From Solirubrobacteraceae bacterium (GTDB lineage Bacteria > Actinomycetota > Thermoleophilia > Solirubrobacterales > Solirubrobacteraceae): 24,643 nt of DNA. Shown here in pieces: positions 18,983 to 22,427 of the stretch (within the stretch, counting starts at the first letter, position 1; every line of letters starts with the position of its first letter). The stretch spans positions 1-24,643 of the forward strand of contig JAXDHC010000064.1 in assembly GCA_034664705.1 (NCBI GenBank), read 5' to 3'. The translations under genes and the position numbers were made by a program. Under the pieces are notes generated by a model that was not told where the DNA came from, searched no databases, and worked only from the letters and a program-made list of their open reading frames with translations.

Positions 18983-19048
18983 CAGCCCCGGCGCGTGATC
19001 TTCAAGGCACGCCATCGCGGCGCCGATACGACTCGGACACCAGAGCAG

Positions 19049-19213
19049 CCCTTCTCACTCAGGACACCCTCGTCGCGAGGCGCGTCCTCAGAGTCAGGGG
19101 ACTCCACCGGAGTCCGCCGGGCCACCGAAGGGCGCCACCGTGCCGACCGCTCGCATGAGCGGTCCGTGGCGGCCGCAGGAAACGTCGGACGGGCTGCTCG
19201 CCCATAAGGGAGG
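19049..19213 (+). other. Structured non-coding leader (four stem-loops) preceding the RBS of the DUF3494 gene
   Basis: Stems: 19057-19094 (ACTC/GAGT, AGGAC/GTCCT, CCTCG/CGAGG), 19099-19115 (GGACTCC/GGAGTCC), 19134-19170 (GCCAC/GTGGC, GACCGCTC/GAGCGGTC), 19191-19203; RBS AAGGGAGG at 19206-19213. No RNA family recognised. Confidence 0.45.
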
Positions 19214-19219
19214 ACGATC

Positions 19220-20410
19220 ATGTCCCGCCCCACCCCCCATCTCGTGCGCGTCAGGCGCGCAGGCATCGCGCTCGCCGCCGTGGGCCTCGCGCTCGTCGCC
19301 GTTCCGGTCGCCGCGCAGGCCGCGCCCGTGAACCTGGCCACCGTCGCTCCCTTCGTGGTGCTCGGCGGCGCCACCGTGACGAACACCGGTCCGTCCGTGC
19401 TCAACGGCGATCTCGGCGTCGCCCCCGGGACGGCGCTCCCCGGCTTCGGCCTCCCGGCCGTGGTCAACGGAGCCACACATGCCAACGACGCCGTCGCCAA
19501 CCAGGCGCAGGCCGACCTCACGGTCGCCTACGACGTCGCGGCGGCGCAGCCGCTGACGGCGGACCTGTCCGGCACGGACCTCGGCAACCGGACGCTGACC
19601 ACCGGTGCCTATCGGTACACGTCCAGCGCGCAGCTCACCGGTGCTCTCACGCTCGACGCCCAGGGCGACCCCAACGCCCAGTTCGTCTTCCAGGTGGCCT
19701 CGGCGCTGACCACCGCATCGGCCAGCTCGGTGGTGCTGATCAACGGCGCCTCCCCGTGCAACGTGTTCTGGCAGGTCGGTACCTCCGCGACCCTGGGCAG
19801 CACCACGGCCTTCCAGGGCAACCTGATGGCGCTCGCGTCGATCTCGCTGAACAACGCGGCGACCGTCGTCGGTCGCGTGCTCGCCCGCAACGGCCAGGTC
19901 AGCCTGATCAACAACGTGCTCACCGCGTCCACGTGTGCCACCGCCCCCACGACGGCGACCACGCCCGGCACGACGACGCCCGGCACCACGGCGCCGACCA
20001 CGACGACGACGAGCGGCGGTGGGCCGCCCGCGGGCGCCACCCAGCGCCGACCCGGCACTGAGGCGAGGCTCCCGGGCCGCAACGGCACGGCGCTCCTGCG
20101 GCGCACCTCGATCCGCGGGGGGACGCCGCTGCGGGCGACGCCGCCCGGTGGCTGCACCGCCGGCTTCCGCGCCGCCGTCCGCGGTCGCATGATCGCGCGC
20201 GTCGTCTTCAGCCTCGACGGCAGGCGCATCCGCAGCCGCGTCAGGTCGCCGTTCCAGGTGAGCGTGCGGGCGCTCCCCGGCGCGCACAAGGTCACGGCGC
20301 GCGTCACGTTCAAGGACACCACCCGCGCCAGGACCCTGACGCTGAAGTACCGCGCCTGCGCGGCCGCAGTGCTCAACCCGCGCAACGGCCCGTCGAAGTT
20401 CGCCGGATGA
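19220..20410 (+). CDS. Secreted ice-binding-family (DUF3494) protein with Thr-rich linker and C-terminal Ig-like domain
   Basis: Signal peptide ending AAQA; FVVLGGATVTNTGPSVLNGDLGV, AQADLTVAYD, DLGNRTLTTGAY, LTLDAQGDPNAQFVFQV, LINGASPCNVFWQVGTSATLG are DUF3494 hallmarks. Confidence 0.92.
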   Translation: MSRPTPHLVRVRRAGIALAAVGLALVAVPVAAQAAPVNLATVAPFVVLGGATVTNTGPSVLNGDLGVAPGTALPGFGLPAVVNGATHANDAVANQAQADLTVAYDVAAAQPLTADLSGTDLGNRTLTTGAYRYTSSAQLTGALTLDAQGDPNAQFVFQVASALTTASASSVVLINGASPCNVFWQVGTSATLGSTTAFQGNLMALASISLNNAATVVGRVLARNGQVSLINNVLTASTCATAPTTATTPGTTTPGTTAPTTTTTSGGGPPAGATQRRPGTEARLPGRNGTALLRRTSIRGGTPLRATPPGGCTAGFRAAVRGRMIARVVFSLDGRRIRSRVRSPFQVSVRALPGAHKVTARVTFKDTTRARTLTLKYRACAAAVLNPRNGPSKFAG

Positions 20411-21162
20411 GCCACGCCCCCCGCGACGTCCCGACACCCCCCGGCCTTCGCCGGGGGGTGTCGGCGTCGGCGGTGGCGCTCCTCCTCGCCGGCAGCGGCT
20501 GGCTCCTCGCCGCTCCGGCCGGCGCCGCGGGCTCCGGCGTGGCCGCGAGCCAGCCCCTGGTGGTGCTGCTGCACGATCACGTCGCCCGCACCGCGCCGAA
20601 GGTCACCGCGCGCCGGATCCGGCGGGTCGGCGCCCGGCGGCCGCTGACGAGCGTGCGAACCGTGCTCCCGGTGCTCGGCCGGCGCATCGGCAGCGACGGC
20701 AGCTCATGGCTGCACGTCCGCCTTCCCGGGCGGCCCAGCGGGCACACCGGCTGGATCCCCGCCGACCGCACCCGGCGCGCCTCCACTGCCTGGCACATCA
20801 CCATCGACCTCTCCGCCCGCCGGGTCACGGTGCACCACGACGGCCGCGCCGAACGCCGGTTCCGCGCGATCGTGGGCAAGCCCGCGACGCCGACGCCCAC
20901 CGGTGCGTTCTTCATCGAGGAGGCGCTCCGACTCTCGCCGGGCGCCGCCGGCGGGCCCTTCGCCCTGGCGACCAGCGCGCGATCGCGCGTCCTGCAGGAG
21001 TTCAACGGCGGGCCGGGCCAGATCGCGCTCCACGGGACCGACCACCTCTCGGGTGCGCTCGGGACCGCGGCCTCGCACGGCTGCGTCCGGCTCAGCCCCC
21101 GCGCCATCACGTGGCTGGCACGACGCATCGGCGCCGGAGTCCCGGTCACCGTCCAACGGTGA
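20407..21162 (+). CDS. Secreted L,D-transpeptidase (YkuD domain) with N-terminal SH3-like segment
   Basis: ITIDLSARRV, AIVGKPATPTPTGAF, IALHG and ASHGCVRL (catalytic His/Cys); WLHVRLPGRPSGHTGWI N-domain; ATGA overlap with the upstream gene. Confidence 0.92.
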   Translation: MSHAPRDVPTPPGLRRGVSASAVALLLAGSGWLLAAPAGAAGSGVAASQPLVVLLHDHVARTAPKVTARRIRRVGARRPLTSVRTVLPVLGRRIGSDGSSWLHVRLPGRPSGHTGWIPADRTRRASTAWHITIDLSARRVTVHHDGRAERRFRAIVGKPATPTPTGAFFIEEALRLSPGAAGGPFALATSARSRVLQEFNGGPGQIALHGTDHLSGALGTAASHGCVRLSPRAITWLARRIGAGVPVTVQR

Positions 21163-21503: not shown

Positions 21504-22427
21504 GTGACCGTCCCCGCGCCGCGTCGTGCCGCGCTCGCCGCCGGAGTCGCGCTCCTCGTGGGCGCGTGCGGCGGTCAGGGCGAGCGCTCCGGCCGGTCGC
21601 CCTCCACGGCTGCGGCGGCCCCGGCCGCCGCCACGACGCAGGCGCAGGCGCAGGCCTCATGTGCGCCCGCCGGCCTACGCGAGGTCGAGGGCGGGCTGCT
21701 GCGGATGCCGTCGGGTGCCCCGGCCGGAGCGACGCCGCTGTTGATCGTCGTCATCCCCGGCGGGCGCGGGGACCCGACCGATCGGCTCGGGGTCGGGACG
21801 GCGGCGAACCGCGCGGGCTTCGGGGTCCTCTACCCCACGTCGGCGGGCAGTGGCTTCTGGCCGCTCAACGACGCCCAGGGCACGTCCGACGTCACCGACG
21901 TCACGGCCCTGCTCGACCGGCAGATGGCGACCGGCTGCTTCGACGCGAACCGCGTCTCGATCACGGGCGTGTCGAACGGCGCCGGGTTCTCGGCGCGCAT
22001 GGCGTGCGAGCTGCCGGGCCGCTTCGCCGCGGTCGTGCCGGTCGCCGCGGGCTACCGGGCGCTCGACCCCTGTCCGGCGAGCGCCCGCGGCTCGTTCCTC
22101 GCCATCCACGGGACGGCCGACACCGTCGTGCCGTTCAACGGCAAGCGCCCCGACCGCAAGGGCAACGTGCCGCGCTACACGGCCCGCTGGGCGCGCCGCG
22201 ACGGCTGCTCGACACCGCCGCGCACGAGCACGCCGCGCCCGCTCGTGACGCGCTTCACCTACCGCGCCTGCGCCGCGGGCACGCGCGTCGAGCTGCTGCG
22301 CCTCTCCGGCACCGACCACGGCTGGCCGGGCGCCGGCCCGCCACTGCCCGACGACAACCCGTCGGGGCTGAGCGCCACGCGCGAGGTCGTGCGGTTCATC
22401 CGCGACGCGCGCCGGCCCGCGGGCTGA
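21504..22427 (+). CDS. Lipoprotein alpha/beta hydrolase, PHB-depolymerase/LpqC-like esterase
   Basis: Lipobox LVGAC; nucleophile ITGVSNG (GxSxG), AIHGTADTVVP (Asp), DHGWPG (His). Confidence 0.85.
   Translation: MTVPAPRRAALAAGVALLVGACGGQGERSGRSPSTAAAAPAAATTQAQAQASCAPAGLREVEGGLLRMPSGAPAGATPLLIVVIPGGRGDPTDRLGVGTAANRAGFGVLYPTSAGSGFWPLNDAQGTSDVTDVTALLDRQMATGCFDANRVSITGVSNGAGFSARMACELPGRFAAVVPVAAGYRALDPCPASARGSFLAIHGTADTVVPFNGKRPDRKGNVPRYTARWARRDGCSTPPRTSTPRPLVTRFTYRACAAGTRVELLRLSGTDHGWPGAGPPLPDDNPSGLSATREVVRFIRDARRPAG

Follow-up and report, generated by a model that had tools for sequence, protein, structure and literature searches.

Covalent protein display on Gram-positive walls is ascribed almost wholly to sortases; sortase sorting belongs to Gram-positive bacteria, with class E enzymes in Actinomycetota. 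The T9SS CTD of Bacteroidota is a sorting and attachment tag which is read by PorU, a sortase-like peptidase. L,D-transpeptidases (LDTs), whose YkuD fold is a carbapenem target, remove just one D-Ala from the C-terminus of their donor and also take Gly or D-amino acids in its place; to our knowledge, Gly is the sole ribosomal residue able to fill a D-amino-acid site.

NCDAA exchange is also listed for LDTs (PMC12729407). All known cases of protein tethering by LDTs concern diderm proteobacteria and employ as the amine a Lys in the C-terminal region or the N-terminal residue, the protein being always the amine acceptor and never the acyl donor (PMC12729407). In the order Solirubrobacterales, to which the DNA described here belongs, meso-DAP occupies stem position 3 in all members (PMC3035278).

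Organization of the Locus

The window, that is, the whole analyzed stretch of 24,643 nucleotides, contains a predicted two-gene surface-display module in which an LDT is translationally coupled to a protein with a distinctive C-terminal tail. The features of the locus are the following.

19037..19219, + strand: structured 5' leader of the operon, putative divergent c-di-GMP-I (GEMM-I) clan variant (conservation, model R1)
19206..19214, + strand: ribosome-binding site AAGGGAGGA, 5 nt 5' of the gene 1 ATG (sequence)
19220..20410, + strand: gene 1, FAG-ended surface protein, 396 aa (ORF, Pfam, orthologues)
19220..19321, + strand: predicted signal peptide of gene 1, residues 1–34 (read from the translation)
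19358..19921, + strand: DUF3494/Ice_binding beta-solenoid passenger domain, residues 47–234 (PF11999)
19937..20038, + strand: Thr/Pro/Gly-rich linker, residues 240–273 (composition read from the translation)
20087..20359, + strand: C-terminal Ig-like (Big_7/Fn3-like) beta-sandwich (AF2, Foldseek, ESM Atlas, alignments A3 and A6)
20360..20407, + strand: flexible 16-residue tail AAAVLNPRNGPSKFAG (AF2 model, family consensus)
20407..20410, + strand: ATGA overlap of the gene 1 stop and the LDT start, with translational coupling (sequence)
20407..21162, + strand: gene 2, dedicated L,D-transpeptidase gene, 251 aa (ORF, PF03734, alignment A4, tree)
20407..20526, + strand: predicted signal peptide or signal anchor of the LDT, residues 1 to about 40 (translation)
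20542..20790, + strand: putative SH3b-like N-terminal domain of the LDT, residues 46–128 (ESM Atlas, AF2)
20794..21153, + strand: YkuD catalytic domain, residues 130–249 (PF03734)

The product of gene 1 starts with a basic N-region and a hydrophobic core followed by AQA and AP, where cleavage would take place. Its passenger domain matches PF11999 with 209.6 bits (cut-off 28.7, E 5.4e-62), although ice binding is not to be assumed because the match to the NCBIfam equivalog IBP_CFB (NF045625) scores 85.9, under the cut-off of 400. The linker is of the type spanning walls in Gram-positive surface proteins and may have the same role here. The Ig-like domain, in which Cys 312 and Cys 380 are near-invariant (alignments A3 and A6), is modelled by AF2 with seven strands and a core pLDDT above 89; it resembles the Fn3-like modules of CbhA in Foldseek (1.4e-4) and Big_7 models in the ESM Atlas (TM 0.6–0.72), while its scores against Pfam Big_7 (PF17957), 14.1–21.4 bits, lie under the cut-off of 24.1, and the likeness suggested by the models is at the level of the fold only. 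The tail has pLDDT 50–64 and no secondary structure in the AF2 model and falls outside the ESM Atlas Ig alignment.

The sequence-only reading had described gene 1 as a DUF3494 protein lacking an LPxTG motif, a TM helix and a charged tail, and the translation and Pfam confirm it, neither LPxTG nor a C-terminal hydrophobic segment nor a basic end being found. Its placing of the end ...NPRNGPSKFAG-stop at 20378–20410 is also right, stop codon included: the F-A-G codons are at 20399–20407 and the TGA at 20408–20410, and the LDT ATG at 20407–20409 lies within the terminal codons of gene 1. The overlap with an intact YkuD LDT bearing the SHGC motif was likewise borne out, the PF03734 match reaching 71.9 bits against a cut-off of 23.4.

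The catalytic residues of the LDT are all in place, namely His209 (21031–21033) and S223-H-G-C226-V-R228 (21073–21090), and the H, S, G, C, and R of the motif are invariant in 32 subfamily members (alignment A4). The conserved Arg is the one that is missing from the amidase DpaA (PMC12729407). The AF2 model of the protein (pLDDT 92.9) has the YkuD fold, the closest solved structures being B. subtilis YkuD, 4A1I and 1Y7M (Foldseek E 1e-10), and mycobacterial LDTs are matched as well; by profile, motif, and fold, gene 2 is a member of the YkuD family and a predicted L,D-transpeptidase. Its N-terminus, as read from the translation, contains no lipobox Cys, and the following domain resembles SH3_3 models in the ESM Atlas (TM 0.73–0.77; AF2 pLDDT above 90), with a sub-threshold match to Pfam SH3_3 (PF08239) of 13.5 bits (cut-off 27, E 0.085).

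Conservation of the Tail on Unrelated Passengers

Orthologous loci in other Solirubrobacterales carry the same gene pair, with its overlap and its tail. The 30 ORFs with the C-terminal domain that were collected from the order all finish with [FY][TA]G-stop, and among 93 cluster representatives carrying the domain at the C-terminus the ends are FTG in 89, LTG in two, VTG in one, and FAG in one. The family consensus is P-[RQK]-F-T-G-stop or G-P-S-x-F-T-G-stop, and coding DNA for P-x-F-T-G-TGA is matched 185 times in 151 genomes, compared with 14 times for the reversed control; the P-x-F-[TA]-G ends which the sequence-only reading ascribed to secreted proteins of this lineage are real. This end does not vary, whereas identity over the remainder of the C-terminal domain is 30–60%.

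The passengers of the tailed proteins are mutually unrelated (DUF7507, DUF11, SpaA-like, Ice_binding, CARDB, SdrD_B, and VWA) and are recognizable as typical Gram-positive surface domains. In public sources the relatives go under 'hypothetical' or 'DUF11' only, the tail domain is not covered by any NCBIfam model, and a sample of 385 other Actinomycetota genomes from outside Solirubrobacterales did not yield it. Hundreds of clusters now called 'hypothetical' or DUF11 share the PhiTG-type end.

The Ig-like domain was considered as the signal and ruled out, since tailed proteins exist that do without it: an F[TA]G end is found on Ig-less DUF3494 proteins adjoining LDTs in four loci (L059, L061, L064, and L065) and on Ig-less proteins of contigs C2 and C440 of the source genome, in all of which a low-complexity basic or Pro-rich stretch precedes F[TA]G. 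The tail itself is thus the invariant part. An artefact of the overlap, in which the Gly codon would be retained only to provide the ATG of the next gene or a ribosome site, was also rejected because the FTG end is retained just as well where a GGC-TGA end overlaps nothing and where no LDT lies downstream.

Position -4 of the tail is variable, being R in 48, Q in 30, and K in 9 of 109 family members; among the orthologues a Lys is present in this copy only, the others having Q, R, T, or G. The proposal that the nearby Lys acts as the acceptor consequently finds no support, and such a mechanism is unlikely. In one genus five or six further residues follow the motif (FTG-RAPAR, FTG-RAATTR), which is at odds with a strict single-residue leaving group.

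Linkage of the Tail to One LDT Subfamily

When the proteins beside LDT homologues were tabulated, [F/Y/L/V][T/A]G-stop ends appeared on unrelated passengers and were strongly linked to one subfamily, the outcome that the sequence-only reading had named as support, so far as sequence comparison can give it. An LDT lies within 1.5 kb in 26 of 30 loci collected from the tail, at least 14 of 20 loci collected from the LDT have an FTG-ended neighbor, and 42 of the 68 tail-domain matches in 151 Solirubrobacterales genomes have a subfamily LDT at a distance of about 3 kb or less, counts that are not independent, many of the loci coming from related genomes. The linkage is seen whichever gene comes first and also where the two genes diverge, spans five families of Solirubrobacterales and other actinobacterial families, and includes an ATGA/GTGA overlap in the LDT frame in 17 of 40 pairs in which the tail gene precedes the LDT. 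In the source genome two of the three proteins with the same C-terminal domain adjoin two of the six YkuD genes, with a chance probability roughly estimated at 3e-5. Each of the three tail genes of genome G125 has its own LDT, and genome G083 contains eight tail-domain genes with only one LDT nearby. The flanks differ among orthologous loci and no further gene is conserved beside the pair.

The linked LDTs score 150–430 bits on the subfamily profile, versus 33–103 for other YkuD genes, and are separated in the tree by a long branch from nine housekeeping YkuD genes; two of their subclades match the two tail types, GPSxFTG and P[RQK]FTG. The subfamily reaches beyond the tail domain, being present in 92 of 151 genomes and the domain in 43; its loci outside the order have an xTG-ended neighbor in only 5 of 22 cases, and of the 59 genomes in which no subfamily LDT reaches E ≤ 1e-35, 19 have a P-x-F-T-G-stop match. 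Genomic linkage and co-diversification of the tail genes with one LDT subfamily are evident at the sequence level, and the tail is very probably a signal tied to these enzymes.

Comparison with Sortases and Other Systems

The tail/LDT system has in common with the LPXTG/LAXTG system of sortases a C-terminal signal on secreted surface proteins, the same kinds of passengers (SpaA-like, SdrD_B, DUF11), and a Cys transpeptidase, with a proposed Thr-Gly scissile bond and a thioester that would be resolved by a peptidoglycan amine. In contrast, the enzyme has the YkuD fold, unrelated to that of sortases; the signal is a bare carboxyl end, whereas in the sortase signal a hydrophobic segment and a basic anchor follow; and one Gly alone would leave. 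The sortase genes of the order are unlinked to the tail/LDT genes.

A sortase signal or a pilus-type polymerisation was ruled out, since 47 tailed relatives have neither L[PA]xTG nor a C-terminal hydrophobic run nor a pilin-type YPKN motif, and no conserved Lys. No PF04203 sortase match was obtained at the locus or in the source genome (82% complete). The absence of sortase was nevertheless dropped as an argument, because PF04203 is present in 114 of the 151 Solirubrobacterales genomes. One family (f5) keeps the tail/LDT pair with a sortase match in 0 of 15 genomes and the LDT subfamily in 14 of 15, which speaks for independence from sortase; in most of the order sortase coexists with the system.

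With Lpp (E. coli LdtA/B/C), Dickeya OutB, and the OMPs of Coxiella, Brucella, and Legionella, the locus would share a YkuD enzyme and the joining of protein to meso-DAP. It differs from them in the monoderm actinobacterial host, in the invariant carboxyl end, in the absence from the tail family of the conserved C-terminal acceptor Lys of the Lpp/OutB type, and in the polarity of donor and acceptor, which would be reversed. The catalytic domain and motif are common to B. subtilis YkuD (1Y7M/4A1I), E. faecium Ldtfm (1ZAT), and M. tuberculosis LdtMt1-5, and as in these cross-linking LDTs one C-terminal residue of the donor would be released; their N-terminal modules are LysM or Ig-like, whereas that of the tail-linked LDTs is probably SH3b-like. 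The tail-linked LDTs further form a clade apart from the other YkuD genes of the genome, each beside the gene of a PhiTG-ended protein. The T9SS CTD presents what we take to be a likeness, in that an Ig-like beta-sandwich closes many surface proteins that are otherwise unrelated, DUF3494 ones among them, but it belongs to a different phylum and machinery; in the present system there is no outer membrane, the Ig domain is dispensable, and the three-residue end is invariant. Full-text literature searches yielded no paper on PhiTG tails, on DUF3494 with a transpeptidase, or on an LDT with a protein donor, and the recurrence of the pairing across soil actinobacteria points to a putative, undescribed route of fastening proteins to the Gram-positive wall.

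Proposed Mechanism and Alternative Explanations

The main reading, to which a probability of roughly 0.45 is given, is that the LDT takes the terminal Thr/Ala-Gly as the acyl donor, Gly replacing D-Ala, and joins the protein to meso-DAP. Both products would be exported, that of gene 1 as a DUF3494 solenoid, a Thr/Pro-rich stalk, a disulfide-bearing Ig-like domain, and a flexible tail leading to Phe-Ala-Gly-COOH, and that of gene 2 as an LDT with a putative SH3b domain and a YkuD domain bearing an intact His/Cys/Arg site. The last Thr/Ala-Gly bond would be handled like the meso-DAP-D-Ala bond of the tetrapeptide stem: the catalytic Cys would attack it with departure of Gly, a protein-Thr-CO-S-enzyme thioester would arise, and the free amine of meso-DAP in a neighboring stem would resolve it, leaving the protein covalently on the peptidoglycan. 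The LDT would in effect be a sortase analogue on a YkuD fold and the bare C-terminal PhiTG its sorting signal. Export, tail recognition by this enzyme, donor chemistry, and the nature of the acceptor are here inferred. Such chemistry is made plausible by the invariant H, SxGC, and R of the enzyme, by the predicted disorder of the tail, by the presence of meso-DAP at the third stem position, and by the release of one D-Ala by LDTs, which also take Gly or D-amino acids in its place. Co-folded, the mature LDT (A4) and the tail domain (A3) scored 0.34, with no specificity over the control at 0.48, and the result counts for neither side.

The same linkage and tail evidence would also be accounted for by an LDT that reads the tail without attaching the protein to peptidoglycan, either trimming Gly as an L,D-carboxypeptidase-like maturase or passing the protein on to something else, for example a Lys on a second protein or a secondary wall polymer. 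YkuD-fold enzymes do include carboxypeptidases and endopeptidases (LdtCd2, PMC12729407), but the transpeptidase-typical catalytic Arg is invariant, neither a pilin-type YPKN motif nor a conserved Lys was found among the 47 tailed proteins, and surface-stalk architectures suggest retention over mere trimming; trimming and transfer taken together seem unlikely. In the classical direction the peptidoglycan tetrapeptide would be the donor and a protein amine, at the mature N-terminus or a Lys, the acceptor, the FTG tail and Ig domain serving only to dock, perhaps on the SH3b-like domain. So far, protein links made by LDTs have been demonstrated with this chemistry alone (PMC12729407), and it suits a Pro-rich, basic tail and an enzyme with a predicted SH3b-like peptide-binding domain; it is quite improbable given that the tail Lys varies, that unrelated passengers mean unrelated mature N-termini, and that docking alone does not account for a Gly fixed as the very last residue.

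The many tailed genes with no LDT nearby, as in G083, together with the tail matches in genomes lacking a strong subfamily match and the variant in which residues extend beyond FTG, would suit a tail read by unlinked machinery (another peptidase, a secretion or quality-control factor, or a PDZ-type reader), the LDT remodelling the wall locally through 3-3 cross-links. Yet the variable flanks yield no other candidate gene, the LDT subclades follow the tail types, and sortase substrates are likewise mostly unlinked to sortase, so unlinked tail genes are no argument against an enzyme-substrate relation; this explanation is rather improbable. Hardly credible, and already disfavored, is the absence of any functional relation, in which the tail would simply have been inherited with a mobile C-terminal domain and the arrangement of the genes would reflect phylogenetic inertia: the relatedness of the genomes speaks for it, but the tail is retained where the Ig domain is lost, its end is fixed in an otherwise diverging domain, and the linkage persists across gene orders, orientations, and families.

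If donor chemistry of the kind proposed is real, this would be the first LDT known with a protein as donor and a second cysteine-transpeptidase route with a three-residue signal; the substrate range of the YkuD fold would be widened, prediction of the surface proteome of soil Actinomycetota would change, and a minimal tag for protein-to-peptidoglycan or protein ligation would be at hand. More tentative is the broader proposal that PhiTG may be a general actinobacterial wall-sorting signal, the YkuD LDT subfamily a convergent sortase with a protein donor, and the leader described below a new ligand-pocket variant of the c-di-GMP-I riboswitch that sets the expression of the DUF3494 pair.

The Leader RNA

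The leader upstream of gene 1, with an aptamer-like part at about 19050–19131, retains 73–81% nucleotide identity over at least 12 orthologous loci and folds with an MFE z of -3.2; GGGAGGAC, in the region of the ribosome-binding site, is kept in the alignment. The copy in the window has no Rfam match at E ≤ 1, and the orthologous leaders reach 47–53 bits, below the gathering score of 59. The clan is assigned only via R1, a model built from the orthologous leaders, which finds bona fide RF03167 copies elsewhere in the source genome; these pass RF03167 gathering with 73.4, 66.8, and 59.8 bits and align block for block with the leaders. By this route the leader is judged homologous to the c-di-GMP-I riboswitch clan CL00126 (RF01051; variant RF03167, c-di-GMP-I-GGC), and the riboswitch variant probably sets the expression of the operon. 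Like members of the clan it precedes surface-structure genes, and it has the same architecture with most blocks in common (…CGCAAAGCCACGGG…CCGGGCU.CCGA…), while a core of GGCACCC…GGGUCCGC…GCUACCGA replaces the GGCAAACC…GGGGACGC…GCUGCCGA of the clan.

Gene Pair and C-Terminal Domain

The gene pair belongs to an assembly of 4.4 Mb (74% G+C, 696 contigs, 82% complete, 4.8% contamination), in which the window is contig C64 and whose nearest public relatives are MAGs of Solirubrobacterales:

19220-20410 (+): tail-protein gene, 396 aa; signal-like N-terminus, Ice_binding/DUF3494 domain (residues 47-234, Pfam 209.6 bits), linker and ~110 more residues
20407-21162 (+): L,D-transpeptidase (LDT) gene, 251 aa; signal-like N-terminus, N-terminal domain, YkuD domain (residues 130-249)

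The sequence-only reading had described an FAG-ended DUF3494 protein whose stop overlaps the ATG of a YkuD LDT with an SHGC motif, and ORFs, Pfam and sequence bear it out. The TG of the tail-gene TGA is the TG of the LDT ATG, and the catalytic residues of the enzyme are His209 and S-H-G-C226-V-R. In the tail protein, DUF3494 is followed by a Thr/Pro-rich linker and the C-terminal end is ...NPRNGPSKFAG-stop, with LPxTG, a C-terminal hydrophobic segment and a basic segment all absent. The downstream gene (21504-22427, +) encodes a PHA/PHB-depolymerase-like esterase (NF050058, 107.8 bits, under cut-off) with a lipobox-like LLVGAC signal, and its adjacency to the pair is not conserved in orthologous loci.

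The last ~100 residues of the tail protein are common to two further proteins of the same genome:

C248, 5054-7447: 797 aa, SpaA/DUF11-like, end RPQFTG
C332, 1095-2717 (-): 540 aa, low-complexity, end SPQFTG

This domain, with two near-invariant Cys, is modeled by AlphaFold2 (79-sequence alignment) as a seven-stranded beta-sandwich with a core pLDDT of 89-96, while the last ~16 residues are without secondary structure (pLDDT 50-64). Among solved structures, Fn3/Ig-like modules are nearest (3PE9, E 1.4e-4), and ESM Atlas Big_7 models align with residues 287 to ~385, leaving the tail outside the alignment; Pfam Big_7 matches the domain at sub-threshold level only and no NCBIfam model was found for it. 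The domain profile retrieves 1,410 clusters (50% identity) at E<=1e-3 and 440 at 1e-10. Among the cluster representatives, a related group with two tandem Ig-like copies (P0032, P0046, P0051, P0053, P0056, P0080, P0087) ends right after the second Cys as ...F-x-K-C-[PRS]-stop, without a PhiTG tail.

Terminal Motif and Passenger Domains

Among the best 150 clusters, the domain forms the extreme C-terminus in 93, whose last three residues are FTG (89), LTG (2), VTG (1) and FAG (1), and ~17 more carry an F[TA]G end with a shorter tail; the rest comprise giant proteins with internal Ig-like repeats, a group ending right after the second Cys and gene calls that probably reflect read-through. Tails follow one of two consensus forms, C-x7-P-[RQK]-F-T-G-stop or C-x(9-11)-G-P-S-x-F-T-G-stop; as the underlying tally was selected by its end, it is informative just for position -4 and those beyond. 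The FAG of the window is a minor variant seen repeatedly (loci L012 and L041, representative P0088, contig C440). A DNA-level search of the 151 genomes of the order for P-x(1-2)-F-T-G-TGA returned 185 matches, with some sites entered at several gap lengths, versus 14 for the reversed control.

The passengers of 47 full-length tailed relatives include DUF7507 (28 members with a match), DUF11 (23), SpaA_4 (17), SpaA_3 (15) and Ice_binding (8), and also CARDB, Big_7, SdrD_B and VWA. Elsewhere in Gram-positives, such domains usually stand before LPXTG; in the 47 relatives, L[PA]xTG, a C-terminal hydrophobic run and the YPKN pilin motif were each found in none. The Ig-like domain is itself dispensable in several members: the LDT-adjoining DUF3494 proteins of four loci (L059, L061, L064, L065) lack it and end in ...GFTG or ...PFTG after an Arg/Pro-rich, low-complexity sequence. 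Two paralogous tail proteins of the genome under study are further members of the class, with neither the Ig-like domain nor an LDT nearby:

C2, 6214-6648 (-): basic stretch, then ...VRIPHFTG
C440, 5958-7001 (-): basic stretch, then ...VRSPHFAG

In these sequences, the invariant feature is the tail, which outlasts loss of the Ig domain. One exception to a strictly terminal motif is observed in a single genus, where the LDT-adjoining DUF3494 protein ends P-x-F-T-G-R-A-x(2-3)-R-stop (L071:4215-4290, -; L073:3244-3318, +); this extension of 5-6 residues past the motif (FTG-RAPAR or FTG-RAATTR) is kept in two genomes that differ in DNA.

Linkage to a Distinct LDT Subfamily

The PhiTG end is probably (~85%) a signal functionally tied to one LDT subfamily. 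The own genome has six YkuD genes, and two of the three tail-domain genes adjoin two of them; the LDT on C248 is a paralogue of the window LDT, 36% identical and of shared architecture. A third subfamily LDT is on C665, where 3-899 precedes 1109-1708; the upstream protein is ferritin-like and exported, with a twin-Arg-type signal and the end ...RRQAPQTTG (Thr for Phe at -3). In related loci found by an LDT-based search, a DUF3494 gene lies upstream in four of five, the fifth being interrupted by a contig end, and the four proteins end in PSTFTG, PSQFTG (twice) and PARLTG with ATGA or GTGA overlaps.

Across the order, the tail domain occurs in 43/151 genomes, and 26 of 30 fetched loci contain an LDT of the window type inside 1.5-kb flanks. 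In the combined hit tables, a subfamily LDT lies within ~3 kb of 42/68 distinct domain hits, the chance expectation being ~0.3% as estimated from 1-2 subfamily LDT genes per 3-Mb genome. Starting instead from the LDT, in 20 loci from genomes or sites without a tail-domain hit, an FTG-ended neighbor is present in at least 14, 13 of them DUF3494 proteins. Among 57 distinct LDT loci, the tail gene precedes the LDT in 40, follows it in 5, is on the opposite strand in 4 and is missing in 8, with doubt about two or three of the counted tail-gene hits; ATGA or GTGA overlaps in the LDT frame join 17 of the 40 pairs. Flanking genes vary between loci, thus conservation is limited to the leader and the gene pair. 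The arrangement is also variable in copy number: one genome (G125) has three tail genes, each with its own LDT, and another (G083) has eight tail genes and three subfamily LDTs, just one of which is close to a tail gene.

On the subfamily profile, linked LDTs reach 150-430 bits and the remaining YkuD genes in their genomes 33-103. A maximum-likelihood tree built from 49 catalytic domains puts all 34 linked enzymes together in a single broad group, with a long branch between it and nine unlinked housekeeping YkuD genes. Subclade 1 pairs with DUF3494 proteins ending in GPSxFTG or xGFTG, and subclade 2 with diverse passengers ending in P[RQK]FTG; this match of two LDT subclades to two tail types is clustering and not proof of co-evolution, since kin carry the same labels. 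The window LDT model (AF2, pLDDT 92.9) is nearest to B. subtilis YkuD and mycobacterial LDTs, and its N-terminal domain matches bacterial SH3 models structurally (TM 0.73-0.77) and weakly by sequence. All 32 members compared have the His, the S-x-G-C motif and the Arg that follows it; this Arg is kept in LD-transpeptidases and absent from the amidase DpaA (2025 LDT review, PMC12729407).

Proposed Mechanism and Known Systems

In the established LDT reaction, the L-centre carbonyl of residue 3 in a tetrapeptide stem becomes bound to the enzyme's Cys as a thioester, and the single C-terminal D-Ala is released; an amine, as a rule the D-centre amine of meso-DAP, then takes over the acyl group. LDTs also replace stem residue 4 with Gly or a D-amino acid. 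In all Solirubrobacterales, meso-DAP is at position 3 and the peptidoglycan is of type A1gamma (PMC3035278). The tail is defined by an unvarying Gly as its very last residue, a small Thr/Ala before it and a flexible arm, which are the requirements for a protein imitating an LDT donor, since Gly alone among ribosomal residues fits a D-amino-acid site. From these features and LDT chemistry we propose that the tail would imitate the tetrapeptide donor, its Thr/Ala-Gly end taking the place of residue 3-D-Ala, and that the enzyme would release Gly and yield protein-Thr/Ala-CO-NH-(meso-DAP). This donor model is held tentatively, at slightly under even odds: no LDT using a protein as donor is known (PMC12729407), and the FTG ends extended by RAPAR or RAATTR in one genus also count against it. 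The other route put forward by the sequence-only reading, in which the Lys of the tail acts as acceptor, fails because this Lys is not conserved.

The proposed module resembles the sortase/LPXTG system in its Cys transpeptidase, Thr-Gly bond and wall amine, and in G083 also in the combination of one enzyme type with scattered substrate genes, but its enzyme belongs to the YkuD family. With the tethering of Lpp and OMPs it shares enzyme family and target and differs in reversed polarity, a monoderm host and a C-terminal signal. A description of the tail/LDT system was not found by full-text literature searches or in the 2025 LDT review (PMC12729407).

Distribution and Coexistence with Sortase

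The Ig-like tail domain occurs in five families of Solirubrobacterales and in 0/385 sampled Actinomycetota genomes outside the order. The LDT subfamily is more widespread, being present at E<=1e-35 in 92/151 genomes of the order (39 of the 43 with the tail domain) and beyond it; at E<=1e-30 it occurs in 102/401 Actinomycetota genomes, a tally that takes in three unpublished genomes (G237, G474, G197), which enter none of the other results; locus L111 was excluded. Outside the order, an adjacent ORF has a tail-like end in 5/22 LDT loci: FGLTG (twice, one locus), APRFTG, TPTFTG, TPNFTG and PVMTG. In one non-order actinobacterium (L091:2310-3594, -), a subfamily LDT (246 bits) has two ORFs in succession on its upstream side, each ending in ...SFGLTG, a Leu variant of the tail. 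P-x-F-T-G-stop matches are found in 60/92 genomes with the LDT subfamily versus 19/59 without it, an association that has exceptions and is uncorrected for phylogeny.

Sortase (PF04203) is encoded in 114/151 genomes of the order, usually in one copy, hence the two systems coexist; a search of the own, incomplete genome found none. In family f5 (genus g24), PF04203 is present in 0/15 genomes and the LDT subfamily in 14/15, which makes this family a natural place for testing independence from sortase.

Leader RNA

The 183-nt leader upstream of the start codon (19037-19219) has a more stable predicted fold than shuffled sequences (z = -3.2), and its identity is 73-81% across at least 12 orthologous loci of three families, the 5' half being nearly invariant. 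RNAalifold predicts 32 pairs on the alignment, with compensatory changes in only two. Searched with a covariance model built on the 5' half, 76/150 genomes contain copies, 1-4 in each, and in the own genome the leader-like copies are:

C94:2053-2152: precedes a secreted-protein gene
C93:2023-2110: precedes a type IV pilin-like gene
C466:313-402

All three exceed the Rfam gathering score of RF03167 (c-di-GMP-I-GGC variant). The leaders of DUF3494 operons score 47-53 bits against this family, under the gathering score of 59, and that of the window, with extra changes and more diverged than its orthologues, gives no Rfam hit. The DUF3494-operon leaders match the three copies block for block with altered core nucleotides, reading GGCACCC, GGGUCCGC and GCUACCGA where RF03167 copies instead have GGCAAACC, GGGGACGC and GCUGCCGA; by this alignment and the altered core, the operon is preceded by a distinct and conserved riboswitch variant from the c-di-GMP-I (GEMM-I) clan. 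This assignment replaces an earlier reading of glycine-riboswitch resemblance in the leader. Such a leader would agree with a surface or adhesion role of the operon.
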